The translations under genes and the position numbers were made by a program. Positions 13,959 through 43,600 of a DNA stretch of 64,000 nt are shown one piece after another. Position 1 is the first letter of the stretch. Each line of letters starts with the position of its first letter. Source of the stretch: Ascidiella aspersa (lineage: Eukaryota); contig OZ004613.1 in NCBI GenBank assembly GCA_963924565.1, positions 21,576,001-21,640,000 of the forward strand. Reading direction: 5' to 3'. A model generated the notes under the pieces. It saw nothing but the letters and a program-made list of their open reading frames with translations, did no database searches and was not told the DNA's origin.

Positions 13959-15129
13959 TTACAAAACAATCTAATGCACCTAATTTACAAATAAAACAGA
14001 ACCTTATTGACAATTTCGTTTGTAAATAGGCCCAAGTTTAAGCCATTATTTTAGGAGTGATTATCTCAACACTAAACTCTAAATGCTTTCGAATAGCCTT
14101 ATGCGTTTGGAACGTCAGTTCACTGCGATGTGACAAACACAAAAAAAATGAATGCATATATTTTATTTCGGAAGCATATATCAAATTGAAACAATTAATG
14201 GTCTCGCGCGAATTATCTTTCTACGTCCGGTTTGTTTACGTTTTGAAGCTGTCTTTTTAACTAGATCAGCACTTCTTTACCTTTGCGCCGTGGACGGCTG
14301 CCAAGTGCGTCGCGGACAAACGGAAAACGTATTTCAAAAATATTGGACTTGTCTCATATTAACTTTTATTTTCTATTTCTTATTTTCGGCAATGTAATAA
14401 AAACTTGCAAGAAATTGGAAAGAACTACTGCCGGTATACCAAAAAAAATCGCGCTCGCTTCGCTTGCCTTCACTTAATACGTTTACAAATGTTACACTAA
14501 TGTCTCAGGATATCTACACAACGGCCTGTCGTATGCCAAGCGCTATACGTGTCGTAAACTGTATTAATATAAGTCAAAGTAACTAAAACAACAAACACAC
14601 ATAAAACAGTAAAAGCGGCCAACGTCTGAAATAGTGGAAACGTTAGTTATCAAGCTTTTCTAAATGTTTTTTCGCAAGCTCCCCAAAACCCCGACTGCCG
14701 ACATTGGTTTTTGGGTACGCCAACAACAACAAGAGGAAGAAAAGGTGTGTGTGTCAAAGTAACTAATTATTAGGTGCCAACGGAAAACGTGATAAGATAA
14801 GAAATGCGTGAAAGGTGATGTGCAAAAGTGGAAAAGCGATATAAAGTGAGTGAAGAGAGAGGAAAACGAAAACACGCATACAACGATAAAACTGAGAAAC
14901 ACACTCACAAACGATAAATAATCAGTACAACACAAACACTGAGCTAGATTAACTTTAAATGTTATCGCGTTACCTCAAAGTAGTTTTATTACATTTTTTT
15001 TTGGTAGTATGGATGACGACGTGTGAACTCGAATTTTAAACTAAACAAACGCTTTTGTTCGCGCTTTGCGCCAACATTTTACTGCCTCCTTAAATTTTAG
15101 TTAACATGTTTTTCATTGCATAAACGATC

Positions 15130-19670: not shown

Positions 19671-22600
19671 TCAAAATTCCTTTCGCCTGGTGAAACTCAT
19701 CATTCTACCAATTCTAGGTGCTGCTGGGTCCGGGCTGGGAGACGTTGTTGGGGCTGGGCCTTCGCTTTTATCGAACGTCGGAGTCTCGTAGACGTTTTCC
19801 GGGTCGTCCACATCACTGCCGCTGTCGGCAGCTACCTTTTGAGGTTGCGACTTTTCGTTGCTCGCGTCTTGAAATTCGGCTGGTGCTGGAGTAGTGCGAT
19901 TTGCGTCCTCGTCGAAAGATTCGTCTATAACAAATGCGTTTTTTCATGAACGTATCACTTTGATTGGTTTGGTGCGCGCAAGAATCAGTATATAGCGACA
20001 CTTACGGAAGTACGGCGGGTTGGACTGATGGGAGCATATTTTATCATCTACTAATATAATTACCGAACTTAAATGCAAGTATGGTTACTAGTTCAGAAAT
20101 AAATTGCCTAATTTTAGGTATAGCGCGGCAAAAATGTTTATTTCCGTGTTAGGGTTTATTGAGTCTCTCGCCTCATATTGCTATGTTGCAAAACAAATAC
20201 TTTATCAAATAATTCGAATGAGCAGGTTATAAAAACTACGATACACTCTATATGTAACTATTTTGTACAGCGTATTAATTCATTTAATCTACTTATACTT
20301 TGCTCAGCCGAATTTTCAGGATCTTTTTTGTCAGAGCCAGATGAACTGTCTTCGTTAAAATCTGCACAATAAAATATGATGTACAAGTCAGTTGTTATAA
20401 ACGACCTACAAATAGTCAACTTCAGTAATTTAACAAACAAAAGTGAAAATACAACAATTCTGAAAAAAAACTTTGCACCTACCATCGTTTTCACGTTGCA
20501 GGTCTGCTTCGTTGTGTGCTTTTTCCGAAATGGATTTCGAAATATTATTGTAAGCGTTTTTCCACCAGCCGAACTCTTCTTGGGGTTCGGTATTTTCATT
20601 TGCTACAAACAATTAACTGTGCTATTAAACCAACGGCATAACAGAGATAATGTGCTATAAAAACATTATACATCTAAATTAGTTTTTGTAGGAAATCGGG
20701 ACACATTTTAAGATCTCGATAAACTTTTAGACAATGAAGTTTATTTTTCTAGCGAACATTAAACAACTGATTAAGTATAGTTTATCACGACAAACAAGAA
20801 ACCAGACAACCAGTGCAAAGTGACATAAACCTAAAGTTTCTTCAAGGTTCTCCAAGTGAGTAAGGTTTAAATTAAACGCGGAAAACCTAGCTTACGGTAA
20901 GATTCAAACCATGTTCTAAAGCAGTGGTTTTCAACCTTTTTTATACCGCGACCCATTTTAACAACCCAATGTAACTAACGACCCGCTTCCCAAAATTTTG
21001 ACATAGGCTTGTATAATACACTTGTGTATGTACAATAGAACAAAAAATAAAATTAAAAATAACATAAATTACGATACCACTCTGTAGAAAAAAATACTCA
21101 ATCATGCACACGGCTGCATTAGTGAAGTGACAGGTGTTGCATATTGGCGACAAGCCTGTCAATGCGCGGCGCTGTTGTTGCCAGAGCACATCATACCCAA
21201 ATAGTTTTCGTAACAATAACCGTTATTGTGATGTAATAACTAGTCTCGCAACTTTTTTCCTGGCTGCTGTTTGAACATTCAACTTTTATTCAACTTTTAA
21301 GCATTCGCTAATATCATTACAGACGTTTTTTTTTTAATTGTCGTCTTTGCGACCCCCCAGAGAAAAGGCAAACGACCCACCCGGGGGTCGCGATCCCCAG
21401 GTTGAAAACCACTGTTCGAAAGACTTTAACAAAACCAACTACTTTATAACTGTAGCAAAGCAAGAGACATCGCTGATGCTTTTTGTATACCCAAATGTGG
21501 TTTCGTTTTACCTATAGGGTGTCCCAAGTGTTTCTTTTGTTGCATTGTTTCTTCGTCGATGTGTTCAAGAGTTTTGTTAATTCGTTCCATTCTGTGAAAG
21601 TAAAGTAAGTAAATCCAAGAGTAAAACGTTTTGCAGGAAAATTGATTTAATCAAGTAGAAAATTCCCCGAAAACACATGTCTGTGATTTCTTCGACGAAA
21701 TTTGTTACTTTTATATTGCCTTAACAGTTGTAATGAGTTTCCCAGCAAGTGATTCGACTTGGGGGAACATGTAATTTTGCCTAAACATAGTGGCTTCACG
21801 TTTTTAGGTGTACTTTATCATTTGAATTAATGGCTGGACAGCAACTCTATCTATAAATTCTGTGTGTCAGTTAATTAGTTTGATGATGCAAAAATTTGAT
21901 TTATTATATTGCAGACGTTACGCATTGCATTTTAATTATTTTATGAAGTCATCTGTCAAGTATTTTTGAAAACAGACGATAAACCTGGGTTTTGGTTATT
22001 CGTATGTTTTTTATCTTGATTCGTTAAAGAATGAAGGAGAACCCAGTGATTCACAAATTGTGTCCGGTGGTCCACTATTGTTTCTCGAGAGATTTTCAAG
22101 TGTGCCGCGAAACTTTTTGTAATTTCGGAAAGAGAGTATTTATATTACATATGGCATATACACAAGCATTTTAGACTTAAATACGCATTATTCAATACAA
22201 ATTAATAACTTCGAGACATTTAAATATAGTTTGTCGTGTGTTACGGACGATTGTAAAATTACTCTATTGTTGCGCTGTTAAAAGTGTGCCGCGAAATAGT
22301 TTAGAGTTTTTTAGTGTGCCGCGAGTCAAAAAAGTATGGGAACCACTGATCTAACCTTTTGACCCAGTAATCGTATCCTCCTTCCCATTCTTCGATCTGC
22401 TGATCCAACTCCCTCTTTTCCTGATCTCTTCTCCTCCTCATTTCAGTGATGGGATCATCTTTGTTCTCCTTCTTGTCCTTCTTGTTTCGGAAGTACTGTA
22501 TCCTTCTCCTCTTTGACCAAGCTACCTGTTGGAATAAAAAGTATGAAATAAGGTACGGGCTTAATGCTTTCCTTGCATGTGATTTGTGTGTGTTTTTAGT

Positions 22601-25600
22601 TGCACCTTATGCCAGAAAGTTGAAGACCTATATGTTCATCAGATTTAATTGTTTGCAATATATCTGTTTGACGTTTAGTCAGCATTGGAACTATGTCCAG
22701 CAAAGTGGAAGCAAAAATTCAACACAGTTGTTTTTTTCCTTGACTATATCGCAAAAGCAATGTATGCCGTAATATATGCACACTAAAGACGTTTGTGCCG
22801 CTTTCTGAGTTATATTTATTGACAGTGCAGGTATGCTAAATATTTCAAGTATCGACACAGTTTGTGTTCATTTTCTAATGTGCGAAGAGATGCACAACGG
22901 TTTTGGCTAAAAGGATTTACAAAATTGGCTGAAAACTAGCAGAAAAATAAATCAGATGCGAAAAACGTTTGCGTTTTTGCAGTTAAAATACAGTTCACTG
23001 GTATGACCACGCATGGAAGTCAAAACCTTTTTCTTTTCGACTAATAGAAGTATCGTAAATCGTATTTTGAGCTAAAACACTGGATAATATAGAAACGTTA
23101 ATATATTTTTGAGAGAGAAAAGTAAAACCCGTTACCTCGCCAAAATGAAGCACAAGGGCTAGAATGGATCCGATTAGCAACGTGATGAACATTCCACCCA
23201 GGTTTCCGATGCCCAATCTGTTCGATTCAATATCAAATGTTGCTTCAGTGCACTCGGTTCTAAAAACCAACAGAATATATTTAATTGAAGTTGTGTTGTT
23301 TTTACATCACTTTCCTTTGACAATGTTTCAGTACTAGGCTTGAATATCCTTGAAAAAAAAAAGAAAAAAGAAAGATTTCATTATGATGTTAATAAAACTT
23401 TAACCAATCCGCCCCGCTTAGTGGTTGTCAACCTTTGTTAGCATCAGTTCTAAAGGGGGTCGCAAAATGATTATAGGTCTTAAAATAGAATATTCGAAAT
23501 CAATCACATCAAAGAAGGAAATGTGTCGTTTTATCTGTTTCAATTTGGCAATGTTTCTCTTTCCATTTACTCTGAAATGTATTTTTTTCTTGCTGATGAA
23601 TGCGAGCTCTCTTGTATTTTGATAGTGATGTAGGCTATGTTATGCGCTCCTGTACACTGTACAGTGGTTTGATCTAACTTGATAGATGAGCGTTTTAAGC
23701 GGTTCTTTAGAATTAATTCGGTATAATGCTATGCACGGTTACTGGTTAGTGTTACTTGCTGAAACATTTCGTTATCAACTGTGTCAGAGGCCTATTTATG
23801 CGAAGTGTGTTTAGAATATTAACTGTTTTACGAAAGGCAATGATTTAATTTTTGAATCCCAAATTGAGCTGCTAAAAAGATGGCTTAGGTTGAGAACCAC
23901 CGGTCCAGCTTTTTGATTGTTTACCTGAAGTTAAAATACTTTGCCTCCAATTCTTGCAACGTCCCGTCGTCTCTCAGTGAGGCGATTGCATCGCTGAACA
24001 CTGCAGTATATCTGGAGTTTAATTGAAACGGAATCGCGTACTGGTACTCCCAGAAACCTGAAGAACAATGGTGTTACTGACGTTCTGTTCTACAAGTAAG
24101 CATTTTAAAGATGTGGGCATTATCATTATATTTGTCAGGAGTTTTTTTCTAAATGAAGGAAGCTTTTAGTTAAAGTTTTTGAAACGCATTCATACCCTGG
24201 AACTCTTAAAATGAATATAATTTTATTGAATAATTGTTTCTCGGCTTTTCAAACCCATGGAAAAAAGGCTTTTATAATTATTTGAATAAGTTGTGGAAAT
24301 TGTCTTTTATAGAGAACTGCAGTTATTTCTATGTATCAGGATAAAAATCTGCAGCCTTAAGTCGACAATGTTTAATTGTTACCTGCTCCAGCTCTTGCGT
24401 ACTGACAGCTAAGCTGTTCTGCTTTGGCAACGTCGCGAAAGGGAGCCAGAAAGTAAAAACTCCCCTCGGAAATTCGGTCAAAAATTGCCTCCGTGCTGTT
24501 GAAGATATTCTCGGGATGTTCTTCCAGATACTTCCAAATGGTGCTGAATGGAGGAGAGTCGGCATAGGGTAGAAAATACTTTAGCATGTGGGCATCTTCG
24601 GTGGTCCCGTAGTCAAAATGTTCCTGTGGAAAAATAGTTTTAATCAATGGAAAATATACATAGTTTTAAAAAATATATAGTTTTAAACGGAAAATAGTTA
24701 AAATATAGTTTTAATCAGAAAATAGTTTTAATCAATTGCGATGCTAACAAAAAATTTGAATAGTAACTCATAAGGCATTTTAAAACCAAAAGAGATGAAA
24801 TCCGTTTTCATTACATACAAATTAGGCCTTAAAAAAGAGAAAAACTCACTAATAAGTTTTCACACTAATGGGATGTTTGCCATGCGAAATATTGCTTAGA
24901 ATGAAACGCGTTCACCTATTTTTGAAACTACTGAGTTCAAACAGTATTTCGGATGGCAAAGATATAAGTTCAATTAAACTAGTAGTTGTTATTGCAATGA
25001 TTTGGACAAGGACTTTACTTGCAATTTGTTTAAAATCACTTGAGTTGTTTTAAAGTTTGTTAACAGGGGACTGGAGTCATTTCAAATGACTTGTTTGTCA
25101 AGTCTTTTAAATTGAATTGTTTACACGCCTGCTTTGAAACGTTGAAATATATACTTCTGCTTATTTGAAGAAATGATTTGTGCTTTACACATGTTTTTTT
25201 TATAAAACTTTTTAATTGATGCTACAAAATTAAATTGTTGCGAAGCAAGAATCTCTCTTTTATATTTAGTGTCTGCAGCATATTTTTCACCAAGAAAGTT
25301 AACTGAAATGGCCTGAACGCAGTTAACTAACTGCTGTTGAAACCTGGCTTAATGTTTGCAAGATATATATAGTAAAATGGGGATTGCGTACTGGTTTAAT
25401 TCAACAGTGTCACGTATTAGGAAGTAAAAACGTAAAATTACAAAACGTATAGTCCTACATGGTAGAAAGCTAGATTTACATTAACGTGTTCGGTTATAAA
25501 TTTATAAAAATAATTAAAAGCTTTACATCAGTGCTCTTCAACCATTTTTGGTTTGGTGAACCCTTAAAGTTGTTGTGACGAACTCATGCACCCTGTTTAC

Positions 25601-28600
25601 TTAAAAGGTAAACTGAGGTAAGAAGCGATATGAAAAATCATTATGCATATCAATATCATAATGCCAATTAAACCGAGTGGAGCTGCCGAAGTTTTCGCAC
25701 TGTCGGTGAGAGTTTGATTTTGGCTGCAGGCTGCTTGCGAGTACTATTGCATGTCATACAACAGCATTCAACGTCAAATATTAATGATTCATTAAAAGTT
25801 TGTGATGCACCCTTGTATACCTTTTAGTAATGGTGCACCCCAAGCATATTTTGGTGCACACTAGGGTGCTAGGTGCACACCGTTAATTGAAGAGCACTGC
25901 TTTACATTACTGACCAAAAAAATTGGGAGTTGAAGTCTATACTAATTGTGAAGTACGAAGCAACGCTTCGAAGAAATCCCAATTGTTTTACACTTAATTA
26001 ATGTGTTTCTAGCCTCTTTGCACCTGTAATAGTAGTTCGTCCAAATCGGCAACCTCTTCAGAAAATTCTTGCGTGAGAAACGCAGTGAGGTTGGCGGTGT
26101 AAGCAGCTATCACCAGCATGGTAAAGTACCACCAAGTGCCGGTGATCATTCGTCCCGCGTACGACTTAGGTTCAATATCAACACCCTGGTGCACAAGGCC
26201 ACCGTAGGTCATCCATATGCTGTTGCCAAAACCTGCAACGCATATAGATGCCGGAACTTAATCCTGGCCAAACAAATAAAGGCCTTAAAAAAAACAAAAA
26301 AACATTTAAATTACTTACATTGTTTCATTTTCTAAACCTGCCATTCATTAGTATTTAGTTTTATACTGTTGTTTCCATTTATTTCTGTTCCCCATTCTTT
26401 AATATAAACCAATTATACTGGAGTTCCTGATTGTATAATTTTAACTTGCAGCTAGAAGAGCATTTTGGAACAAGATCTGGTTTTACCCAAGTTTCAATGA
26501 GTTGGTACCAGGGATGTCCGTTAATATTGGTTCTGGGATGATACCGGTCCTAAGGGGTATAGTATGGTTATTAGTCCAAGTTACAGTTTTACCAATTTTG
26601 CTGGACACAGCTAAAATGTAGCTTTTGTAAAAGTTATACATCTCCAAGACCTGAAACTTTAACAAAATAAAATAGATTTATGTTGTGTTTTTTCGTTACT
26701 TCTTTACGTCAACATTGTATGCAGCTTTGTGACGTCATAACATGAAAAATAATCATGGACAATACCACAAGATCCACGCCTACCTAATAATATCGTCATT
26801 TGGTATCGGGCCGGAAAAGCGGTAGTTTTGCCCACAATTTTGTATCGGACGGAAATATGTATTGGACATAGTGTTACGCCTAACCAGGTTCACAACTTGG
26901 GTCGTACCCAGAAGCAGTATTTTTTTAGGCAAGTCTAGCTATACTGTTTAATTTCAACTAAGTTGCAGTAATAACGTGTGAAACAAGTCCCAGTCAAGTC
27001 ATTACAACACTGCGTATGCGAAGGCTTTTCTGACTCGTGTTGTTAAAATAAGTACACAGAAAGCCACACTCGTTTTGTACGCCTTCAAAATACCAACGAG
27101 CGCCATTATAATTTATTTCTTTAACCAATGACTTATTTTATGTAAAAATGCGTCAACGTGAAAGTTTACCGAGTCTGTCGAAGTTTTCCACTTCCACGTC
27201 ATCATTCGTGTCATCAAGGGCCAACTTTCGCCACTCGAACGGATTAAAGTGATTGACCAAGGCTAACATGAGACTCACCACCACTAGAGAGGAGCAGAGA
27301 GCGAACCACGAGTCGAAAGTGAACGGGGCAAGAAACTGAAAAAACACCGTAAAGAGCTTTTCACTAATTTGTCTAATGACCAATAATGTTCATTTAGATC
27401 TAGCGCTGTGAGAAAAATGTCTTCTTTTGGCCAATGTGTTGTTATCCAGGTTAATCCAAGTAGCATAGCATTGCCAGGATCAAAATACGTTCACACAACA
27501 CACGTGTTTTGTTTAAATGTTGGAACAATGTGTTTTTTTTCGGGCATTACATTGGCAATAAGTAAACATCTTTTGTAATTAACATGGACTATTAATTCAA
27601 TATATGTACAGGATTTCAATTTATGTGACCAGTGGATTTTAGATGAAGCCACTTGGCTCACTATAAAAGAATTCTTTTATCTGAGGAGTGAAATTTCGTT
27701 ATTCGAGTTTGGTTTTAAACGCAAAAGCGAGACATTTCAGTTAACTGGCAGGTACACTGGGACAAAGCCTTAATCAGCTAACATTGTTGTACGTTATTCC
27801 AATTTAACATGTTATGTTTGATCTATTGTGGTGAACTCACAAGAGTAATTCCTGATTTATTTTGTTATTTTATTGTGCTATAGGTGGAAGTAATTGTTAC
27901 ATCACTATATCGCAGTGGTTTCCGAACGGGGGTACTACGACTAGCAATGGATCACTAAAAATGTTGCAGAGGTCCGCGAGTGCATTGGAAATTGAAAGAA
28001 TTTCTATTTTAATAAAATAATATACATATTCTGGATTCGGTGACTGTCTGGGGGTTGTATTTAGTTGGTCTTAATTAATGAAGGTCGCCAAACTACGGCC
28101 TGCTGGTAAAATGCGGCCCGGCGATTGAATTCTTTCGGTAAACATATTTTCTAAAAACAATAAAAATGTCTAGAAACCAGTTGAGTCGCGATTGAAGGTC
28201 CGATCTCGAATTAGCAGTCCTGTATTTCACCCATTCATGTAACAATTAAGGTTGTTATACTGCAAATTTACTTCTTATCCACCCACAATGTTTTTAACCC
28301 TGATGGACTCAACTTTAAGATTTACAGTTAACAACTGTACATTATGTTTGGTTACGCACTAGCCACTGCGCAAGAAAACAAAATACTAAAGTCTCAAAAC
28401 CGACTCATGCCGAAAAAATGACTTCGTCTAGTGACAGTCGATTCCGCTTACTGCATGCTACAAAGTTTACAGTTTCGCCTACCTGCCAAATGTTGACTGG
28501 CTGCTCGTTGCCCGAAGCTAGAGTGACCATAAAGTAGGAGACCTGCTGAAAAGCTATTGACCATTCTTCGTCTCCAAGGTAACCCCCGAGAATCGAGCGA

Positions 28601-31600
28601 GTGTAGAGCACAAATTCGACCTTAAAATAACAGAAAAATAAAAAATACAAACTTCATGCCATCTTAGTTGACCTAAGTAAGCCCAAGGACGCTGGTTAAA
28701 TCCATTGTCATTTTCTGGGTGCGGTCTTGTCTTCCGTTTGATTATAAATACAAGCAAATTAGCCTAACAAATCTTATTAACGACTACAAAGGCAAATTTG
28801 AAAAGTCTCTGAGCAAACACTTTTATTTCTAATAATTAGATTATTTTTTTACTTCCTACACCGTCCGGCAGTAAATAAATTCATATAGCTGTGTATCTCT
28901 GGTTTGGACAAATGAATTTGCTGTTTTTTTGTTTTTTGCAATTATCCAATTTCCTATTTTAATAATATGCTTGGTCTTGTTTATTTTGTGCAATCTTTTT
29001 TAACCTATATTTTAACTAAAAAGTCTATTCTTTAAAACAATTTAAAACAACCAGCATATTGTTTTTCTTTGGCATTTTTATAGTCGTTTGTGATATTCTT
29101 TGTGATATACCATAAATACCAACTATTAGCATTTTTGAGTGTTTTTCATAAACCTGAAAAAACAACTGTAATTTGTTTTTCACTGGTCGTCAGTAAAATA
29201 TGAAAAACAAGTCCTGATGCCACCCAGACAATAATGCAGTACTTCATACAATCATGCAATGTATAAAAAAATGATTTTGTGAAAAGTAAAAATTTATCAT
29301 GCTTCAGGTCGAAAAAAATGTTTTCCTACTAATGATTTGTTCATTTTTATAACAGTTGCATGAACACAAAACAATGTTTCTTTGTTTCGTCACCAAGTCC
29401 ATTGTAAGATACATTTCAGTTCCCAAATTTTCCAACAAATGTTAGTTCGTTTTAGCAAACGTTAAGAAGGCCAAGGACGGTTTCGTCTTAAAAAAGGGCT
29501 TTTTCGCGACTTGGGTCAATTGTGAAAATTATACCGGGTTACCATGAACTATCAAGTGGAAAGTATCCTTTTGCCGAAGGAGAGAAACGTATGCTTGGCG
29601 AAGGGATACAAAGTAAGCGACCAGTTTTTGGGAGGCGGCGCTGTCGGCCGAGTATTTTTGGCCGAGGCAACCAAACAACTGATTGAGACCAACGACACGC
29701 TAAAGTTGTTGGCTGGGCAAGCTGGTCAGCTAAAGGTAAGTTTATGGAACTTGGTTGTGGGTTTCATCTTTTTTATAAAATATCATATAAACCTAAAAAC
29801 AGACAGATTTGTTAAATAAAATGGACAATTGGTAGCAATAGCCAATCAAATTAAAAAACTAGGCATTCGTATTTCTTGCATTTGTTGGCCGACCAGTTTC
29901 ACACAATAGTTAATCATACAACAATTTTTTTATTTAAGTAAATTGTTTATTTTCCATTTTGTTTAATTCAAGTTGTTGTCATGGTAATAATCACACTTTG
30001 TCAAATTGTTAAGCAGTTTAGTATCAGTTTCGCATTCCTGCCAATTGTGACGTAATTTTGCTTGCAGGTCAACTTGTTTATGTTATCTTGTACTTATGTG
30101 GTATTCTTAAAAACAATACATAAATTCGAAATAATTTAAAATAAATAGTTTCTAAAATTTATTTCTTTCATTATGTGTTTATACCAACACGAAAGCTTAA
30201 CAGGAAGTACATCGTTAGTGACGTTATATTTTAGTAATTATAGGAAACATTAATTATTATAATTATTTGTTGTTTTTTGCAAAGTTTATTTATTGCAAAA
30301 TGTAAACAAGTCAACAAACTCACAAACATTTCAAATTTTACCAGGTCGCGATGAAGATAGTGTATGCCGATTTGGGAACTGTCGGTGTAGCAAATCTTGC
30401 GAAGTACTTACCCACCGAAATATCAAACTTAAACAAGACTTTTGGACATCCAAACATTGTAAGCATATTAGTGGGGCGATTATTTTTTGACTTGTCAAAA
30501 AACGTCAAAATTTTGAGAAATTTTCACGTTAGGTCAAAATTTGTCAAAATTATGTCGAGTCAAAATCGATTAAAAATGCCAATAAATTGTTTCCAAATTA
30601 AATAATAAAAACTATAGTCATCTTGTTGAATTTGTCTTTCAGTTAAAATTTTATCAAAAAAATTGGTTTAAGTTATAGTTAACAACATTTTAAATGTTTT
30701 ATTTCTTCCATAGAGCAATATACGGTATCGATAAATGTATTAAACCGTATTGCTATCGTTTTGCGCTTTTGATTTGTCATTAGCCCATTTCTTATTTCGA
30801 TATTTCGATAAGTAGACCAGCTAACCTACAGGTTAAGTCATAAAGTTGCGTCCAAACATGAAGTAATTTTTTGTTATCCTAAAAAGACGAAAACACTAGC
30901 ACGCATCGTGAAAAATGTCTTTGTACAGTTTTAGTTGCCCAAACTTTAACTTTAGACTTTCGGGCTAAGGTGGTTTGACCAAATGGTTGAGGTCTTTAGG
31001 ACACAAGAGAGATTAGTTAAATTTCGCGTTGTTAACTCGAAAAAATTGTTGCTCGTAAGCATTTTTGTAGTTAAAATTGAAAAAAAAAACAGTTCGAAAG
31101 GCATGGCCACGTACTCTCTGGAGCCCCCTCTGACTATTATTTGCTTTTATACTCAGTATTGTACAGCATGGGCGACGGTTTTAATCGTGAAAGCAAGGTA
31201 ATTAGAAAAAATAATATAGCGGGTTATAAATCGATTTTATGTTCTCGGGTATAAATGTGATACCTCCAAATGGTTTGTAATATACTTTAGTGTCGCCTTC
31301 AACAAAATGCTACAATGGAAAGATATGCATTGCTTGTACATAGAAGATAATTGTGTTTCTGTTGCTGTAAAAGTTTGTACGTGCCTTTTGTGTAGAATAA
31401 TCCTATATTAAACTGCGCCTGCAACTGTTTTCCCCAGATCAAACTGTTGGACGTTTTCGTCTCCTGCAAACGCATCTTTATGGCGATGGAATACGCTGCC
31501 AAGGGCGACCTGAAAGCCTTGTATCGAAGGCACGTAACCAATAATCCCGAAAAGACATTTTTCGAAGAAAATTTGGCACGACAATACTTCATGAAAATTC

Positions 31601-34600
31601 TTAGAGGCGTACAGCATTTACACAAAAACAACATTGCCCATCGGTAAGTGTTCTGCTTTTGCTCAGCTATCACTGTCGAAAGTCCCATCCTTATTCCTAA
31701 AAGAGTAGTTCTCAAACCTTATACCTGACAGGCCTCTTTTGCTTATAGGCCTACTCAGTGTTGTAATGACTTAAGTCAATGACTTGACTTAAGTCACTGT
31801 TTTCAAACGACTTGACTTGACTTAAGTCATTTGGGAAAAATGACTTGGGTTAAAATAAAGCGTTTTTTTCAAATATTTTTTTATAAAATTGAGCTATTTA
31901 TCCAAATTTTAGCACATAAAACAAATTGCTTGCTATATGTTGCGTTTTTTCTTATTTTTTAGTTCAGTTATTTCTCATAATCATACAAATTAAAAAAATT
32001 TAATAGTTTAAAATTTTATTTTTTAACAAGGACATGACTTAAAGTTGACTTGCTCTAATTATGACTTGACTGGGACTTGACTTGCGCAACTGATGACTTG
32101 GACTGGGACTTGACTTGTCATTTATTTAAAAACACTTGACTTGGACATAAGTTGTTTTACAAATGACTTGACTGGTACTTAAGTCAATTTAAAATGACTT
32201 GTTTACAACACTGGGCCTACTTGAAGTTATGGCGAACCAATTAAATCTTAAAACAATTACTTTGATAGTCAAATCACTATACCCCTACATACTAGTTGCT
32301 GTACACAAGTGTGAAATATTTATTTAAAATATGTTTTGCTGACACCGAGAACTGCCCCAATCTTGCAACAAATCTGAAGTTTGCGTAGCTTAGTTATTGT
32401 TGGCAAAAACTCATACTATTATACAGGGATCTTAAGTTGGAAAACATCTTGGTGACGGAAGACGGGGAAGTAAAGCTTGGCGACCTGGGATTTTCTGTCG
32501 GACCCACCACGAATCAAGAGCATAATGATGGAAGGGTTTTTGGGAAGTTCCCGTGCCGCGTAAGCGTTTCGCAATGCGGAACCCCAGGCTTTATGGCCCC
32601 CGAGGTGCTTCGAAGCACCAAGGGGAGCCGCATGAGTTCAGGCTACAACGCAGTCCAGGCCGACTTGTGGAGCTTGTAAGTTAATTGCTGTTTTTCTTTG
32701 TATTACAGCATTCCGTTTTCTGAGGAAAACTATTTGATATTTTTGTATTGACTCGTATAGTTTTTTTGTTGCACGATTGTATTTGTGTTTTAACTAATGT
32801 AGCAATGTTTTGATACGCTCGAGGCCAAATTCTATGGATCATATTTTGGCAAACCTATTAAGTTTTGAAGCTGACAATAATTAGCGACAATTAATTGACA
32901 TGATCTGACCCCAATGTATTCAAATCATGCCTTTTTACTACGTGAGCTGCTACCTTTTCAAAGCTAACTGCAAAACACGCTTTCCAGGGGTGTTGTGCTC
33001 TTTGTGCTTGTCAATGGCCAGTATCCATTTCCGGGAAAGACGCCCAAGGAGGTTTTAAAACAGTACGAAAAAGTCAAGTCCGCGTCGTTGCCCTTCCGCA
33101 GAGGTCTTTCAATTGGTGGGTGGGTGTATTTGAGAAAGTTTGTAAGTGAATCTAAATGGGTATTTCACGCAGAATAATTTTTGTGTATATAGAATGCCAA
33201 GACTTGATCAATCGCCTGATCAGTTACAACCCTAGAAGCAGACCTAAAGTGTTTGAGATCATGCGCGACCCCTGGATAACACAGGACCCCAAAAAACACC
33301 AAGGCATTCCGTATCGTGAAATTATGGTGGGCTGAAAAAGCAGCATAAACTGTGTAAAGACGTTCTTGATTTTAACAACTGTATTTTTTAGAATCCTTTG
33401 TTGCCGTCTATGGAGGCATGCCGGATCAGCAATCACCAAAGTATGTATTATTTTCTATAAATCCTAATGTTGTGTGATTTATCAAAAAATCCTAATGTTG
33501 TGTGATCTATTTAGTTATGTTAACAAGAAAGCCGATCGCAATTATCGTGTAATTTAATATGTTATTCAAAATATACATCGCAGAGCTGCCTTAACATTAG
33601 TCAACTGTACTGCCACATATGTATAGTAGGCTAGTTTACTTATTTATTTTGTCAGAAATTTCCTTCCAAGCCACTTACGTGTGCAACTACCTGATTCAGC
33701 GAAAAGAGTTTTTGAAAGAAGCTCGAAAATGTATTTCAAAGTCTGGCAAAACGAAACCCGAAGACTTGCAAAACGCGGGAATCCGCATCAGACTGCCGCG
33801 TCGAGACACCCAAGGCAAAAGCGTAGACGAGGTCTGGCGATTTGAGGCATACCAGGATCGCAGTGCAAGCAAGGTTCCGAATCCATTCGTAGCAAACACC
33901 TCAGAAAATCCCAAAGACCCGTGGGTTTTGCCTCCTGAATCTATGGAGCCGACTCTTGGTATTTTTTCAGTAAGACGAGAACTTGCTCGAGCACCGCCGC
34001 TCCTGAAAAAATGGCGCGAAATTCGCAGGTGCAACAAAACGCCTGAAACCTACATGGAAAAATGCGTCCAGCTTTGCAACACCGTTGACCTTGACCGGAC
34101 GTGGCCCCCGGCTGAACCCCCACCAAAGCCCCCCACACAGCAGTGGGTCGAGGTGTTAGACGTCGAGAGCAGGTACCCGGGAAACCACAGTCGAATAAGC
34201 GAGCGCGGGAACCTGATGATTTTGAAGCGCGTGCCCGAGCAGAAGTTTTCGGCGCGAGACGTCCTCGTTACCTATACACCTAAGGCATCCGAGAGCTCAG
34301 CCTACAGACGGCGGTACTTTAAAACCGCTGGCGAAATCTTCAAAAGCCAAACTTCGTCAACGCATTTCACGTTTTACCTCTCGCCCAAGTCCGTTGTAGA
34401 AACTGATGGGCGCATCAAAAGCAAAATTCCGACCCACAGCAGCAGGAAAAAGTTGAACAAACTCCGGAAGCTTAAGAGAAGGAAAGGAATGCGAGGTTCC
34501 AATCGTTCCGCCTGCGATTTTCACTCGCCCAGAGGTGATTCACAATATTATTTGTTGTTTTTCTGCCAGTGTTTTGTTTACTTTAGGCTTGCAAAAACTT

Positions 34601-37600
34601 CAGTGAAAATAATTTTGTCGCCAAAGCTTCTCTGTTATGCCTAAGCTTAGCATTGGATCGGACACATACAAAAATATTGAGATACACTGTTCTAGCATAA
34701 TTACTTTTCTACATCTTTTCGTCGATCGTTGCCGGAGTTATACTAAAACCAAAGTAATCATCAGTAAAAAAAGAGTGGCCCAAATAAATGACAAAAGATT
34801 CATTCAAGATTCAAACGTCCGAGCGTCTATATAATTATTCATGTTTATCTCAACCTCATTTTACCGCACTGAAGATGTCATAAGCACTTGCCGAAACGTA
34901 TGCAAATAAAAGAATGAATATTTCATCATTTATTTGGGCCACACTTTTTCTACCGAAGATTTTTATGAACAGATCCGTGCTTAGTATTCGAAACCAATCA
35001 TATTTTCCCTTTTGTAAAGTCAAGCGTAACTTTTCACCGCGACTTAATTTATCCACTTTTACGAATCACTTACAGAGGTCAAACCAAATCCGCGAGAAAT
35101 CGTGCCGATAGACCTTGCGAGGGTGCTGCACAGAGATGACAGAGGGTTCACCAGGATTCCTGCCCCGAAACAAACCCCGTTGCACAAATTGTACCCACCA
35201 AGATCTCCATCAACAAGTAGGCGTTCGTGTTTAATCCGTATACCGTTATCTTAGCACTCAGGTGACAGTGTTAACCATAACTATGTGTAAACAATCTAGA
35301 GTGGTTAATTTGGCGAACAGTTTTAATTTATTTTGGTCTCTATTTATCCTGCTCTGCCTTGGGAGTTTATTATGTCACCTCTTTTAACTCTCATTTTAGT
35401 TCTTGCCCATGTTTTAGCTGTGCTTGTTTAATTTTAGAATAGCTTATCTACTATTGTGAGTAACACAAAAAATAACGATAAACAACCATGTTAGGCAAAT
35501 CAGAGTCGCTTCAAAACTTAGCAAATGCACAAGCTGCCACGAGGAAGTCAATTATTGCTGAGCACAGCAGTCGCAAAGTAGCGAACGACATGGGAAGAAG
35601 AACGCTTCCGAGCTATGCATTTTCCAAATTTACAGGTAAGAAAACCTACTCAAATATTGAATGGAACAGATGGAAAAGTTATTCATATTATTAGAAACTT
35701 CAAAGTTATTCATAATATATCTTTTCTATTGTTTATCCAGTATTTTTTGTTAGGTGTGGATCCAAAAGAACCACCCCAAAAGTCAGTACTGAAACTATTA
35801 GACGTGAGACAGTTTTTGCAAAGAAACCGTGACAGCAGAACCAAAATTCCGATGCCGAATTTTGTTGAGAAAACGCGGCAAAAAATAAGGGACCTATATC
35901 TGTCGAAAAAACTTCAAAAAGGTAAGTTAATGCATTTTTTAAATTTGATATTTGCATCAGCGATGCAAGTCACAAATGTAAACACCGTTCGTTTTATAGG
36001 TGCGTATTTTTTTCATTTTCATTTTACAACATTTACCTATTGTAGACGAGGCCACACAAAATCCCGGGCGCCTGAAAAGAGTTTCAACGAAAATATTGAA
36101 GAAGAAAGATATGGTTAATTGGTGCAAAGCACAGATTTTTCCGACCTTGTTCTCGTACAAGTCGGAAGTCGAACGCACAAAGCCTGCTAAACCTGATAAA
36201 ACGACAATTAACACGAAACCCGTTCAATTTATCCTGAACTGGAAACGCTGTCCGAACCCAGAGGACCGAGAAAAACGTGAACAAGTAGGTTTAAATTAGC
36301 ATTTTTTCCTGTCATCATTGTAAATTTGAGCGTTAACGCAATTGGTCAGGTCACGATATATTCTGTTAAAAAGTGTTGTGTTTTACGGGTTTTTTCATAA
36401 TAGCCCACAACTCTTTTTATCACATTCAACAATCTTTAGGTTGACGCCACGCTTATTTATTAACTCTGGACTTTGCGTGTTTTTAGGACCAGGAACCATT
36501 GTTACCGGTACTCCAACATCGCAATCAGCAGGTTTAACTGCCTCATATATAATAAAATTCTTATTCTAGCATATTTTAATGTAATAAAATAGAGTTAGAT
36601 TAGCTATCTTCAAAATTACCCCTGGTATTTTTTCTTTCACAGGTATCTGGTGGTAATCAGTCACAAAACCTTCAGAACATTCGGTACAAGCCTCATATTC
36701 GCCGAGGAAAAGGTGTTGCACTTACACATTATTTGCTGTAGCGGATTTCCGTGTTTGCTAACCGTTGTAACCTACTTTTTATAACAGGAACAAAGGCAAC
36801 GTATCGACCACAGCTGCACTCTAGCCAAAGGAAAAATCAGCCGTTTCACGATATTACACGTTCGTCAGGTGCGTCGCTTTTCTTTCGGTATTTTGCCTTT
36901 TAACGGTTTTATGTGTTATCTTGCTAGTTTTTCTCCCCTTATGAAACGGTGGATTTGTTTTATAGATCGTACTTCGCTCATCACTGAAAAGCAAAGCCGT
37001 TCCGGCCACCGAGACAAAAATAGCCACGGTAGAAATTACAGAGCAATTCCGGTACGAACTTCAAAGGAAATAACCGTATCCAGCGATGTAGCAAAAAGAG
37101 AAAACATGGCGCATGCGACGAAAAAGGTTTCACTTGCGGAGGGAGTATTAACAAACGACAAATTGTCAACAAACAGGGGCACATCGAGAAAAAAGGTCAA
37201 TAAAACAGCCAACTCCAATGTATTGTGTCAGACATCATCTCGATCTGTCAATTCAGTAGGAGTGAGTGAAATGGGTAAACAACAGGCCGGACAAAACTTT
37301 TTGTTGGTTGAAAAAAACGAAAAACAGTCATATAGCATAAGCGAAAAAGTGGCAAGGCTGGAGAAAATGTCATGGAAGAGTTTGTTAGATTCGGATATTT
37401 TTGAAACCGATTTAGGCGCGAGTTGGTCAGGCCCAGATGCAGATAAACTCCAGGTCGTAAAAGAATGGATGGGAGAAGACGATTTTATGTTCTTTCGCAG
37501 AAGCGCTTTTGAAAATTATGTTGATAATTTGTCAGAGTTATCGGATGACGAAAGTGACTCCAGTGTATGCAGTAACGAGACGGTGATTTCTGTAAAAGTT

Positions 37601-40600
37601 GCAACAAAGGATAGCGAGAGTTTTGTGCAGAGTTCCTGTTTTAATCAAACTCCTGCAACAACTGTCACATCACACGTCGACAGAATTGTAAACGAAATGC
37701 TTGAAGAAGAAAGCCCACTGCTGATTTTGAACAAGCTTCCCGAGTTAAACATTCAAGATACTCGGTCTGCCAAAAATTGTTTAGACTCAAGGTATTCAGA
37801 ACATTCGGAACATTTTATATCACCTCCAGATCAGAAGCAAGTTAAAATCGAAAATTCAGAGATTGGAAACTATTTGACCGGTGCCTCCGGTGAGACAACA
37901 CCGCTCCTATGTGATTCTGAAGTTTTGCAGTTCCCGGACGGTAATTTCGAGGAAGTTAAAGAAATGTTTGGGTACCACAGTATTTCTGATGAATATCTAG
38001 TTCGCACAGAACTCCCAAAAGTTACAACCAAAGATACAGAACTTGATTCGAATGCATCTGACAACCTAGTTGAACTGATTCCCTATGTTCAACTTTCATC
38101 AACAGCATCCGCTAGCCATCCATCTTTTTCTCCGATGCTTTGCGATGCCCCAGTCGATGTGCAAGCAACCACAACTGTAAATAATGCGATAGATATAAAC
38201 GACAAACCTATTTCACAATCACTAGTTATTGAAGAATACCTGCCACCTATAAAATCCTGGGATTCTAAACAAGGCATTTCTCTATCACCATCACTGACAA
38301 ATAATAACGACATGTCGATTTCGGAGTTGGCTGTTACAGGGCCGAATGCATCAAATACACAGCTGGGTCAAATAGTTTTGCCTGTATCAGATAAACGGTT
38401 ACGTAACAGCAGCATGTCTGCAACAGATGCACAAATGACTAGCGTAACTGCATTCGATGCACAACTTAGTAAAATAAGCGTGTCTGCATCAGATAGACAA
38501 CTGGGTGAACTAAACTCGCACAAATCAGATGCACAACTGAGTTGCAAAATCGTATCACATGCGAACTCTGGTAGCAGCAGTATGTCGTCATCAGATGTAC
38601 AATTAAGCGAAATTGTGTTGCGTGTATCAGATTCACAACTGAGTAAAACAAGCACTTCTGTTTCAGAAGCTCGACTACATGTAGATATAAGGGGCACGCC
38701 AGTACCAGATGAACTCGTTAATGAAAGGGTGTTGCCTTTATCAGATGTACAACTGAGTGAACGAAGCATGCCTAATACAGACTCACTGTGTGATGAAAAA
38801 AGGTTTGCAGTATCAGAGGCACAACTAAGTGAAAGAGTTTTGCCTGGATGGAATGCACAACTCAGTGGAAGAGGCGTGCCTAGGGCAGAACAAAGCAGAA
38901 TTTCTGCATCAGAAGCTCAACTGAGTATAAGGGCCACGCCAGAACCAAATAAACTATTTAGTGAAAGGGTGTTGCCAGTATCAAAGGCACAACTAAGTGA
39001 AATAATTGCGCCCGTATTAGATGCGAAACGGAGGGAAATAAGGGATTGTGTGTCTGACGCACCGCTTAGTGAAAGAGTTTTTCCTGTATTAGATGCACAA
39101 CCAAGTGAAATACACTTGCCTATATCAAATATAAAACGAAGTCAAAGAGTCATTTCTGAATCAGATATGGAACTTAGCGATGAAAGGATACCTGCATGGG
39201 ATGAACAATTAAGTGAAAGCAATGTGTCTCTTCCACATTCACAACTTAGTGATTTAAGCATTCATATATCAGGTGCAAAGCTAAGTAAAAAAAGCATGCC
39301 TAAATCAGATGTTAAACAGAGTGAAAAAACTCTCGTATCAGATTCTTTTGAGCTTAAAGGAAGCATGACAAAGTCACCAAAATATTTACCTAAAACGAAT
39401 GTACCAATATCAAACTCACATGTGTCACAAAAACCGACTTCGTCAATAAAACTGTCAAATTCCACAAGCCTGGTACCTAGTACAGCAAAATATCCTTCTT
39501 GCAACCAGGCTGAATCTGTTGGTTCAAAAGAACAAGTGCAGACTTCGAAGTTGTCGACGTTTACACATTTAAAATGTGCGTTAGAAGAGGCGGTGATGCC
39601 TGTTGTACTACCAGAACCACTTTACGAATCACCAAGTCTACCGATGACCCCGAAGGCCGCGAAAGTGGCCAAAGTGGTTGATCTTCACCAAAAAGACACA
39701 ATCAAGCAGAAGGTTAAAACAGTACGCGTGAAAAACCGTTTACCTAAAAAGGACGAAAGTCTTTCCATTATTTATACAAATAAAAAGTCAAACGACCGCG
39801 AAAAAGTTGAAAAGCCTGACAGGAAGACAAATGTGCCAGCAACTAGCGTTCAAGATCAGCAAAGACGATGTGCCACCTTTTCATCGAGCAATAGCGACAA
39901 TGATATGGAAATACAGTTTGCGGACAGCCAGTCATCACATTCTAGTCGCCAATTTGCTGAATTAGGAGTCACAGGTGAATTTCCGAAAACGGAGTTTCTC
40001 AACGTAACGCCAGACGACACAGTTTCTACTCCAGGCGAAAAGTCAAGCGCGAAAGGAAAGTATGTCTCCATAAGGATCAAGGTGCCATTCAACGCCGATA
40101 ACAAATCACGTTTAAGAGAAATATGCGACCACCTGACTGATCAACTATCAAAACAAAACGACGCTCACGGCAAAAAAGAAAAACTAAACGAAAAGAGGAA
40201 AGAAACGGTCGACATAAAGCGCAGACAATGTGAATCAGCTCCAAGTCACCATTGCCGCGACGTAGCGTCACAATTTTGCGCCAGCGAAGGCATGCAAAGC
40301 CAAACACGTTTCACTGACGGCAAGTCCACTCAAACAGTTTCCCGTGAAAGCAAATCGATCCAAAAAGATGGCGGCGAAACCAGGTCCACTCAAGTACTTG
40401 AATTCAAAAGCAAGGCGACGCAAAAGTGTCTCAGCGTTAGCAAGTCGACACAAGCCGTCGAAACCCGGTCAATGTCAACACAAACCGATTCGATTACAGA
40501 GTTTTGCGTTCGCGCTTCGAAACGATCTAGGCGTAGAAACGTTTGCAGGAAAACTGGGAACGAGGTTCCGTTGTCCTGCTACGCGACACCAACAAAACAA

Positions 40601-43600
40601 AACGCTGCACCGCTTCATGGATCCAATTCTATTTGTTCAGACGATTGCAATTCGCTTTTTAGCTTCGATCCGTCTCCCTTGTGTAACGTCGAAACACCTT
40701 GCACAATTTCAAATCGGCAAAACACTGTGCAAATAATTCAAAATAGCTTCTCTGTTCAAATTCCCACAACGACGCAAACGCCCATGACCAACATTGCTTC
40801 GCGGCCTAATAGATCCCATCCGTATGCAAACAGACTGACGCGGCCGCAAAGAGACTCTTTGCCTACCAGCCTTGTCGCTGCATCTCACCTTCAACATCAC
40901 AACGCAGATCATAGCCATAGGCGGACACCTAGTGAGTCCGATTCCAATGTTTTTGTTCCGCTTGGTGGCGTTGACGCGCAACGTCCGTCTGATTTAGAAG
41001 GCGAACTAAATGAATTGAACCAAAACAAAGGCGACATGTGCACACCGCCGCAAAGCACGTCGCCGCCGAGAGAAAGCTTTGCGGAGACGAGGGCCTTTGT
41101 TAGCCGCATGCAGAGAATGCAGCGACACGTCGCACAAAACTACATCAATGGATCGACGTCAAGAAACCGCTCTCCAAGCCACGGCTATAGCTCGTATCGG
41201 GAAAGGATGCAACGTTTGGATCCGAACAACAGCATGGGTTCATCCCTGTTTCCGTGGGAAGAATCCGATAAAAAAAACGACGTCGAACGGGGATTGACGA
41301 GTTTCTCTTCAAATCAGGGCAATTTGCGATAAGGCCTGATGTTTTCGATTCTGTTGTGCAATTGTTATTGTCGTACCAATATGCTCGTCATAATCTGATT
41401 GTGAAGGCTTTAAAACTGCACTTGAGTCGCTGGTGTGTGTGTGTAGTTTTAAATTTTTTTTTATTACTAGTGTAGTGTGACCATATAAATGAATGAATAT
41501 GCCGCACAAGATGTATAAAACGAGCTATTATTTATTTTGGTATATTAAACATAATTATGCTAATTACTGCCAATTAGGGCTGTCATAAAACTCCCAAAAG
41601 GAGATAGATTGCAGATTGACAGTGCATGTGGTGTATAAAATATTAACAGACAATACCTTTGATTTTAAAACAAAATGCTTCTTTTCTTAAATTATAAACG
41701 TGTTATCTTTTTTGATAAAAAAGCGTCAATGAAATGATAAAATCATGATTTCATAATATTGACTTAAAATAACATGTTGACGGAAAACAATTTAGCGACG
41801 GCGATACGAGTTTGCTTACAACAAGCATTTTCGAGATAACCGTTTGGACAAAAGTCTTAACTCTTAAGATTTTTGCTCAATATACACAAAAATAAAAAGT
41901 AGTAAAATTGACCATAAGTCTAATTCCTTACAAGCTGCTAAATCTAGAGGTCGATTATCTTTTCTTATGGTAGCTTTGCACAAACTCAGTTCCAAACCAT
42001 TTAATAGAAATATGCAAGGAAGTTTTTAAACATTCCATTAAGATTCTGCGGTATGTTCGTTCACTAAGTATATCTATGCCCAGTGATGGTATGAAAGCTA
42101 TATTTTTTATCACGCACCAGAGTCGGTAACATTTTGCAAAGTTGTGGGGAGTTAATCAACGTTTTACAATAATAGTCATCTATGACCAATCAAATCTGAT
42201 CTTTCGACCGTAATTTAGATACTGAAAAAAGTAAATCAACGAAAACTGCGTTAAGGCTTATGTTGCTTAAGCAAAACAAGCCAAAAAGGTTCAACAAGTA
42301 AAAGGTTTAACAAGTTCCAAGTGTATCCCACCTCTTTATTATCCAGCATCCGATTAACCTCGTCTTCTGCTTGGTCGTCGTTCAAACGGTTCGGGCCTGT
42401 CTTCTCGTTCCATACCAGTTCGTATTTAAAGTTGAGTCGCCGGGAGAGTGTCTCAACCAAGTCGACGAGAAACCCTTCGTAAGTGGTTTCCGAAGTCACT
42501 TCGTTTACGTGCCATTTAACCCAAGGGCGCTCCTTTAAAAAACGCACTTTGTTTTTGCCCTGTGTTTGCCCTGCCCTTCTATCACGTGACAATAGAGCGG
42601 TTTGGGCCGTTAAAAAGCGGTTTCAAATAAGAAGATTGTCATTAGTTGATAATAAAGTGTATATAGGTTTCCAGTTCAGGCAATTATAGTTTATTTTTAT
42701 TCGCTTATCTGTATAACGGTTTATAATACAAAATGATCATAAACATTTTTCTTATGTTCCTAGGTTCCAATTTGCTAGTGAGATTTTGGTGAATCACTTT
42801 ATCGGGTAAAAATTCCAGACTGCATTGTGGTTACAAAACACTTACAGAAATCGTCATTTTTTATATTTGTTTTTACAACAAATTGCTTCCATTACTATAA
42901 ATATACACATGTTATGTGCACTGTAGGCTAAACCGCCTTTCACGGAATGTATAGCCCATTGTATACTTTAAAGTTTGGCCTCTATAAACTTACATAGACA
43001 AGGCCTACTTTGAGAGGTTCCTCTGGGAAAACAACAGCAGCTTGGACGAAAGGAATATATCCAGGAGTGAACGAGTTGTCCACCCAATAACCTTGCTAAA
43101 CACAAGTGACGTCACAAAAGTTTAATGAAAAGTATATGCTTGGTCATCAACCGCACACAGATATGTTAAGGTTAAGCTCATTATTATTAGACCCACTGAA
43201 GGCCAGTGGTTCTCAACCTTTTTTTCACTGCGTACCACCTCGAGCTTCTATGATCTTGTTGCGTTGGCCTACCAAATTGTCGAAAAACTCAACTTTACTC
43301 AAAATCAATATAGGATTATTAACTAAACAAATGCTGCCCACTACTCCCAAAAAAGTTTCCCTTTTTTAACTTGCAAAATACTGGTCAAGTTTTGCGATTC
43401 TTTGTTCTTTTGCTATGATGTCATAGAATAAATTTGCATAGATGTTCCGGAAAGATAATAGTTCCTATCGTTAAAGAAGCATAAAATATTTCACTATACA
43501 ATCATTACGATGAATGTATAGTTTATTACAATAAAAAAATGCTTAACCTTGAAACTGTAATTTTACTTAAAAACATACTGCGTACAGCGTACCACCCAAA

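Follow-up and report, generated by a model that had tools for sequence, protein, structure and literature searches.

The window analysed here, 64,000 nt of Ascidiella aspersa DNA (assembly GCA_963924565.1, contig OZ004613.1, positions 21,576,001 to 21,640,000, forward strand), contains one spliced, expressed gene coding for a protein of 2,400 aa, in which a kinase likely derived from the TSSK family is followed by a probably folded domain and a very long tail. Taken from the ATG at 29,544 through successive GT/AG sites, the gene has 16 exons between 29,544 and 41,332 (+), 7,203 nt in all, with no internal stop in the reading frame and GT..AG at 15/15 introns (Table 1). RNA run X3 (stranded short reads carrying the same species label, about 6% of the run read) showed, with RNA on the + strand, 13 of the 15 introns: introns 4-15 were all seen within 32300-42100 (12/12; 8, 15, 15, 17, 5, 14, 7, 10, 11, 12, 21 and 9 reads), and 11 loose read ends at intron 3 bear exon-3 letters. 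Introns 1 and 2 are absent among the joints listed (15, with 686 further) because repeat joints dominated that list; exon 1 is covered by 12-13 reads, and exons 1 and 2 are matched in 26/27 and 27/27 paralogs, with the same GT/AG placement in most. A small exon also stands at the place of exon 7 in the four paralogs inspected (4/4). Mean RNA depth is about 4-22 in mostly-exon bins up to ~41,780 and 0.7 over intron 8; it is alike from the kinase to about 450 nt beyond the stop, drops over introns, and extends past a possible poly(A) signal (ATTAAA) at 41544. The single pile-up of ends inside exon 16, at 39208 (5 molecules, depth 18), does not interrupt the coverage. The open frame of exon 16 has 1,455 codons, against 188 for the longest stop-free run in 300 shuffles. 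None of the 51 coding variants listed is a stop, and the coding indels or skips among those listed (3, 3, 15 and 78 nt) are all multiples of 3. The 78-nt GC..TG skip at 38164-38243 (4 reads, 2 starts) was considered as splicing and rejected; we read it as an in-frame allele.

The earlier note had proposed an uninterrupted exon chain from the kinase into the 4,367-nt terminal exon, and the 16-exon open reading frame (ORF) and the RNA joints confirm it. Two separate genes, or a dominant short kinase isoform of ~343 aa stopping just inside intron 6 with the big exon belonging elsewhere, would be extremely improbable. Reading through the exon 6 donor does meet a stop after two codons, the exon 8-9 joint is the weakest (5 reads), and short reads give a chain of junctions and not a single full-length molecule, so that the two ends cannot be joined by them. 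Against this stand the junctions seen, the similar depth along the gene and the same exon order in four paralogs; moreover, since no RNA end is listed at 33.3-34.6 kb, the transcript does not appear to finish just after the kinase.

The gene belongs to a large family. Kinase exon 4 and exon 8 are each matched at 28 places in the genome, in pairs, and these counts are lower bounds (at least 28 places). The members are spread over six contigs, near-identical tandem arrays included, and 23 of them have kinase exons 1-6 undamaged, whereas in the other 5 these exons are broken. The window gene is the longest: together with four others, whose terminal ORFs have 1,016-1,041 codons (one frameshifted), it forms a set of five long members, and the remaining 23/28 have terminal ORFs of about 180-640 codons. 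Taken as sequence features, the gene, the family and its domain are close to certain. One explanation for the expansion is sperm competition or segregation distortion, with the tails as diverging targeting arms, as for the mouse Smok sperm kinases, which are multi-copy in the t-haplotype in the portion of the source consulted (10.64898/2026.10.21.760645). The 28 copies on six contigs, the near-identical arrays and the five broken kinases would suit it, but the ratio of non-synonymous to synonymous substitution rates (dN/dS) is below 1 in all regions tested, and we consider it very unlikely.

Some members have peculiarities of their own. Five near-identical short members lie in tandem at G000:C3:12.10-12.135 Mb with a period of ~8.6 kb, one of them with a stop in exon 4. 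The terminal exons of a short-tail subfamily (L050-L053, L062) repeat the form P.PP.Q...SAARKRRI.KRQS, which resembles kinase pseudosubstrate or phosphorylation sites. L064 (G000:C4:14.54 Mb) is the sole member with TFCGS; GWKSPE(F/I)F recurs in its terminal ORF, and a stop closes its exon-8 frame after 97 codons.

The kinase domain of the window gene shows the Gly loop GGGAVG, VAMK, the alphaC Glu, HRDLKLEN, DLG, a T-loop Ser and APE, with an insert of ~20 aa between beta2 and beta3; its Pfam Pkinase match and catalytic residues are those of a CAMK-group kinase. In a search of the Protein Data Bank (PDB) with exons 3-4 of one paralog, greatwall came on top and most top matches were MARK kinases. 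The kinase is likely catalytically active, because the catalytic Lys, Glu, HRD..N, D[LF]G and APE are kept in all 23 intact kinases of the family and the kinase dN/dS is low (0.06, 0.20 and 0.21 in three paralog pairs). The T-loop residue is Ser in 18 of these kinases, including the window gene, and Thr in 5; the phosphorylatable T-loop residue of TSSKs is given as Thr in the part of PMC7401350 used here.

A number of arguments favour the descent of this kinase from an intron-rich ascidian TSSK. The DLKCEN catalytic loop and the CGS P+1 loop constitute the TSSK motif, and both are visible in the TSSK-named database proteins compared. A search of the genome for DLKCEN gave 11 matches, of which 5 are canonical TSSK-type genes. 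One of these genes, L090, has DLKCEN, CGS and the beta2-beta3 insert, and shares all five kinase introns with the window gene (5/5, identical in place and phase), whereas, of the other DLKCEN kinases, two have no intron within the kinase domain and two have differing introns. A low-complexity open frame of 1,342 codons (L100, G000:C2:~29.30 Mb, -) lies just upstream of this parent gene. L090 has orthologs in Clavelina (80% over the query exon; P0035, 878 aa) and Styela (69%; P0036, 1,041 aa), labelled uncharacterised, unnamed or par-1-like in a search in which most other named matches were TSSKs; by motif and tree, we judge both to be long-tailed TSSKs. They are also the best BLAST matches of the window protein among the stored proteins (206-208 bits, the rest at most 150). 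From the five common introns, the insert and these long orthologs, we conclude that the kinase is likely TSSK-derived and that long tails have a precedent.

The kinase trees agree in part. In a quick tree of 46 rows, the family is sister to the L090 clade with a support of 85 in the Shimodaira-Hasegawa-like approximate likelihood ratio test. A maximum-likelihood tree of 32 rows, which omits 14 of the 46 (3 gappy or distant outgroups, 1 long branch, 4 near-duplicate paralogs and 6 redundant TSSKs), supports the family at 100/100 and the sister relation at 92/86; the rows contain no vertebrate TSSK. However, the stem of the family is long (0.89), the tree has only two outgroups, and an approximately unbiased (AU) test does not reject a placement outside the canonical TSSKs (p 0.056), which is why we give gene structure more weight than the tree. 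The earlier description of a TSSK-like kinase is supported as to ancestry. The motif and the compact size of canonical TSSKs are not shared: the window kinase has DLKLEN and CGT in place of DLKCEN and CGS (CGT in 22/23 intact kinases), and DLG in place of DFG (20/23). With a C-terminal region of ~2,070 aa, against 66 +/- 40 aa, the gene is TSSK-derived and not a canonical TSSK. It may also resemble vertebrate TSSK5, in the insert and the intron-rich gene. The first two exons comprise 102 codons and those of human TSSK5P 101, in the part of PMC7401350 used here, a match that is suggestive only.

The first segment after the kinase, aa 359-570, is a conserved, undescribed domain that is probably folded. 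It is matched in all paralogs (partially in the broken ones) and, in the short paralogs, is conserved about as well as the kinase; dN/dS of exon 8 is 0.39, 0.31 and 0.18 in the three paralog pairs. A profile of 17 copies searched against 1.84 billion representatives gave 16 matches, from which we dropped P0010 and P0016, repetitive proteins aligned over a short piece. The 14 genuine ones are all single-exon fragments, and none of the 10 looked up has a name. The domain is also encoded at 20 metagenome-contig loci, 7 of which extend far enough upstream and show the same kinase exons, so that it follows this kinase in another organism too; several are followed by ORFs of 280-600 codons, in some of which one or two xTQT motifs occur. 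No credible Pfam match was obtained for exon 8, exon 16 or the 17 copies, a PDB sequence search with the domain gave nothing, and word-indexed searches of longer proteins with exon 8 and of proteins with exon 16 found nothing, which are weak negatives. An AlphaFold model from 42 sequences has a mean predicted local distance difference test (pLDDT) of 73.7 and a predicted template modelling score of 0.69. Searches with it returned no Foldseek match at E<=0.001 and a best VIA match of Z 3.4 (root-mean-square deviation 6.2, 99 residues aligned), and an ESM Atlas search with a homolog gave only scores <=0.79; such negatives fall short of proof that the fold is new, and the searches barely covered the model's residues 151-211. 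A first model from 17 sequences was poor (pLDDT 44) and a charge-hydropathy index scores 84% of the domain as unfolded, so its folding may take place on a partner. The domain is missing from P0035 and P0036 (hidden Markov model E > 5; profile probability 0.2%), and its likeness to the tail of the parent gene is limited to a helix with V..YL..R where a phase-1 exon begins, which does not establish homology.

The earlier note had described everything beyond the kinase as a largely disordered tail. This stands for aa 571-2400, of which 69% is disordered by the same index, but not for the exon-8 domain, and the region is therefore not wholly disordered filler. The tail comprises a basic region, an acidic block, a degenerate 12-aa-period repeat and other short blocks conserved with the long paralogs (Table 1). 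The repeat is private to the window gene, where it covers most of the ~430 aa of extra length. Near the C-terminus lie six predicted LC8-type motifs (KSTQT, MSTQTD, RSTQV, KSTQA and two with Lys at +1) in an exact 10-residue period, and two further Gln, at aa 2048 and 2058, keep the register. The array agrees with the type [D/S]-K-X-[T/V/I]-Q-[T/V]-[D/E], as the LC8 consensus is set out in the section of PMC3078936 consulted. Six motifs within 100 aa occurred in 0/1,000 shuffles, and the run of 8 Gln at period 10 compares with at most 4 in shuffles (n=2,000). The four long paralogs (4/4) have five xx[TI]QT motifs each, with Thr at +1 in 20/20. A better test than shuffling is conservation: compared with each of these paralogs, the window array agrees at 17-18 of 20 positions of the motif core (-3..0) and at 8-10 of 30 flanking positions (Fisher p 1e-5 to 4e-4). 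The four are mutually close, so this amounts to about one comparison. The array segment is disordered (96% below zero by charge-hydropathy, a crude predictor), and a canonical, intronless LC8 gene is present in the genome. A PDB sequence search with the array found nothing. The idea of a scaffold tail gains concrete footing from this predicted array.

These elements can be assembled into a mechanism. The kinase would be active and, like TSSKs, would probably be switched by T-loop Ser phosphorylation. The exon-8 domain would be the fixed docking or regulatory module of the family, since it is always present and in short paralogs conserved about like the kinase. Stacked along the arrays of two chains, in the manner known from Nup159, KANK1 or RSP3, LC8 dimers would pair these chains into a stiff stalk, which would likely anchor the kinase to a structure of the spermatid or flagellum. 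The basic region and the acidic block might bind microtubules or partners, with the 12-mer repeat as a spacer specific to the window gene. The role that separate partners (TSKS, ODF2) play for mammalian TSSK1/2 would then be partly built in. That an active TSSK-derived kinase has its tail paired and stiffened by LC8, likely on such a structure, has in our estimate an even chance of being right. The fuller version, in which one ascidian TSSK gave rise to 28 genes that share a regulatory domain of new fold, and the giant members scaffold themselves as an LC8-zipped rod on the flagellum or basal body, is a possibility we hold only tentatively. Precedents exist in the excerpts drawn on from the LC8 literature: the shortest linkers have 1-3 residues, as in ASCIZ (PMC10046861, PMC12797016), short uniform linkers lead to LC8 rods in KANK1 and Nup159 (PMC12803091), and the radial-spoke stalk is built by an LC8 stack on RSP3 (PMC3392930).

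Several points weigh against LC8 pairing: 1) the two motifs of six with Lys at +1 fit the consensus poorly and may be weak; 2) tandem duplication could create the periodicity, for which shuffles are no control; 3) with a period of 10 residues, successive motifs are separated by about 2 linker residues, among the tightest spacings in known arrays; 4) the array is limited to 5/28 members; and 5) the tail changes fast, with 28 non-synonymous and 10 synonymous changes among the exon-16 variants listed. The kinase and the exon-8 domain could be the working unit, the tail being mostly accreted, weakly constrained spacer on which LC8 would at most dimerise the kinase, with no structure built. Members without the array (23/28) and a window gene whose extra length is largely private repeat would fit this, as would a terminal-ORF dN/dS of 0.42, 0.71 and 0.75 in the three paralog pairs. 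It accounts less well for several tail blocks and the motif cores being preserved among paralogs despite strong divergence or saturation at synonymous sites, for the 51 listed coding variants free of stops and for the four listed in-frame indels or skips, and we regard it as rather unlikely.

The site of action proposed for the LC8-stiffened kinase is the male germ line. A role there or in sperm is likely by analogy, given the TSSK ancestry and the location of ascidian TSSKs in sperm flagella (PMC4427456) and testis (PMC4523013; see also PMC12424747 for both), in the extracts of these papers considered. Against it, Botryllus tsk2 was localised to oocytes, in the same extract of PMC4523013, and RNA run X3 carries a species label and no tissue label. 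The family could have moved out of the male germ line, to motile cilia, oocytes or other somatic tissue. We consider this unlikely in view of the TSSK ancestry. Moreover, ascidians are mostly hermaphrodite, so that whole-body RNA may include testis, and rapid duplication combined with quickly changing tails is a pattern typical for genes of sperm.

The whole gene lies antisense within an intron, predicted with phase-0 donor and acceptor, of a gene resembling ionotropic glutamate receptors. This host has a ligand-binding exon at 42.3-42.6 kb on one side (Pfam Lig_chan-Glu_bd at 42254-42622) and, on the other, exons that run leftwards from 28.6 kb (Lig_chan at 26027-26245); the junction across the intron was not seen in the part of run X3 read. 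It is a divergent gene spanning ~22,300-49,700 (-), with an M3 segment of YTANLTAFL, the usual one being SYTANLAAF. High-copy intronic repeats occur at 31,756-32,213, ~30,470-30,520 and ~34,600-34,900, and the intron-3 element is made of TGACTTGAC-type units that are very abundant in DNA runs. Elsewhere in the window, ~8,300-15,000 (-) holds a multi-exon MFS transporter (SLC22/OCT-like by eye, Pfam MFS_1 weak) and 19,674-22,606 (-) the exons of a gene whose low-complexity tail carries an ENVY tyrosine motif.

Table 1. Features of the kinase gene and the enclosing intron, in window coordinates.
Feature	Position	Strand	Remarks
Exon 1	29544-29735	+	
Exon 2	30345-30458	+	
Exon 3	31438-31643	+	
Exon 4	32427-32675	+	
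Exon 5	32988-33115	+	
Exon 6	33193-33326	+	
Exon 7, linker, 49 nt	33392-33440	+	flanking RNA joints 15 and 17 reads
Exon 8	33656-34534	+	begins with post-kinase domain
Exon 9	35076-35216	+	
Exon 10	35495-35635	+	
Exon 11	35754-35921	+	
Exon 12	36046-36284	+	
Exon 13	36487-36531	+	
Exon 14	36643-36712	+	
Exon 15	36788-36868	+	
Exon 16, terminal coding, 4,367 nt, to TAA	36966-41332	+	ORF and RNA joint
3' untranslated region	41333-41780	+	RNA depth to about 41,780
Ser/Thr kinase domain, exons 1-6, aa 1-~327	29544-33326	+	Pfam Pkinase, motifs, RNA joints
Undescribed ~200-aa domain, probably folded, aa 359-570	33658-34293	+	28 genome matches, homologs, AlphaFold model
Basic disordered region, aa 571-1060, net charge +65	34294-37309	+	end of exon 8, exons 9-15, start of exon 16
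Acidic block, aa ~1061-1200, net charge -16	37310-37729	+	conserved in long paralogs
Degenerate 12-aa-period repeat (x-D-A-Q-L-S type), aa ~1411-1725	38360-39304	+	absent from long paralogs aligned
Six predicted LC8-type motifs, aa 2063-2122	40316-40495	+	Gln at aa 2068, 2078, 2088, 2098, 2108, 2118
Intron (~13.7 kb) of ionotropic-glutamate-receptor-like gene, enclosing the whole kinase gene	28624-42330	-	predicted junction

TSSKs are small kinases of interest as contraceptive targets, and they rely on partners for their targeting. With one fixed domain that has no structural match and between ~200 and ~1,450 terminal codons, the 28 members provide a natural series on how a sperm kinase is positioned; the exon-8 domain offers a candidate new fold. 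In the literature covered (subscription journals and supplements lie outside it), nothing was found on the 28-gene expansion, the exon-8 domain or the LC8-type array. The architecture was not recognised in the earlier note; it is not unique, because 28 paralogs exist and the parent TSSK already reaches 878-1,041 aa, and long TSSK tails have an unremarked precedent in ascidian database entries. The closest known proteins are these long-tailed TSSKs (Clavelina lepadiformis CAK8688431.1 / XP_076815161.1; Styela clava XP_039253184; L090), which share with the window gene the five kinase introns (L090), the insert, ~35% kinase identity, a long basic disordered tail and the sister position in the tree. 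They keep DLKCEN, DFG and CGS, all altered in the window gene, lack the exon-8 domain and the TQT array, and have less than half its length. Canonical TSSK1-6 share the CAMK group and the T-loop Ser/Thr, with KYLP.E for KFLPRE, and differ in the C-terminal region, which, in the part of PMC6905558 used, is 66 +/- 40 aa in 82 metazoan TSSK1-like proteins and 12-217 aa in non-mammalian chordates. The mouse Smok kinases are likewise a lineage-specific, multi-copy CAMK-group family, but they are MARK-like and the window family is TSSK-derived, so the likeness is one of analogy only. Finally, the multivalent LC8 clients Nup159, KANK1, ASCIZ and RSP3 have tandem TQT-type motifs in a disordered stretch with short uniform linkers, as predicted here, yet none of them is a kinase, and LC8 binding of the window array is a prediction only. 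With linkers of 4-5 aa in Nup159 and 3-4 aa in KANK1, the period of 10 in the window protein is tighter, and an array so unusually compact would test the spacing limit for LC8 stacking.

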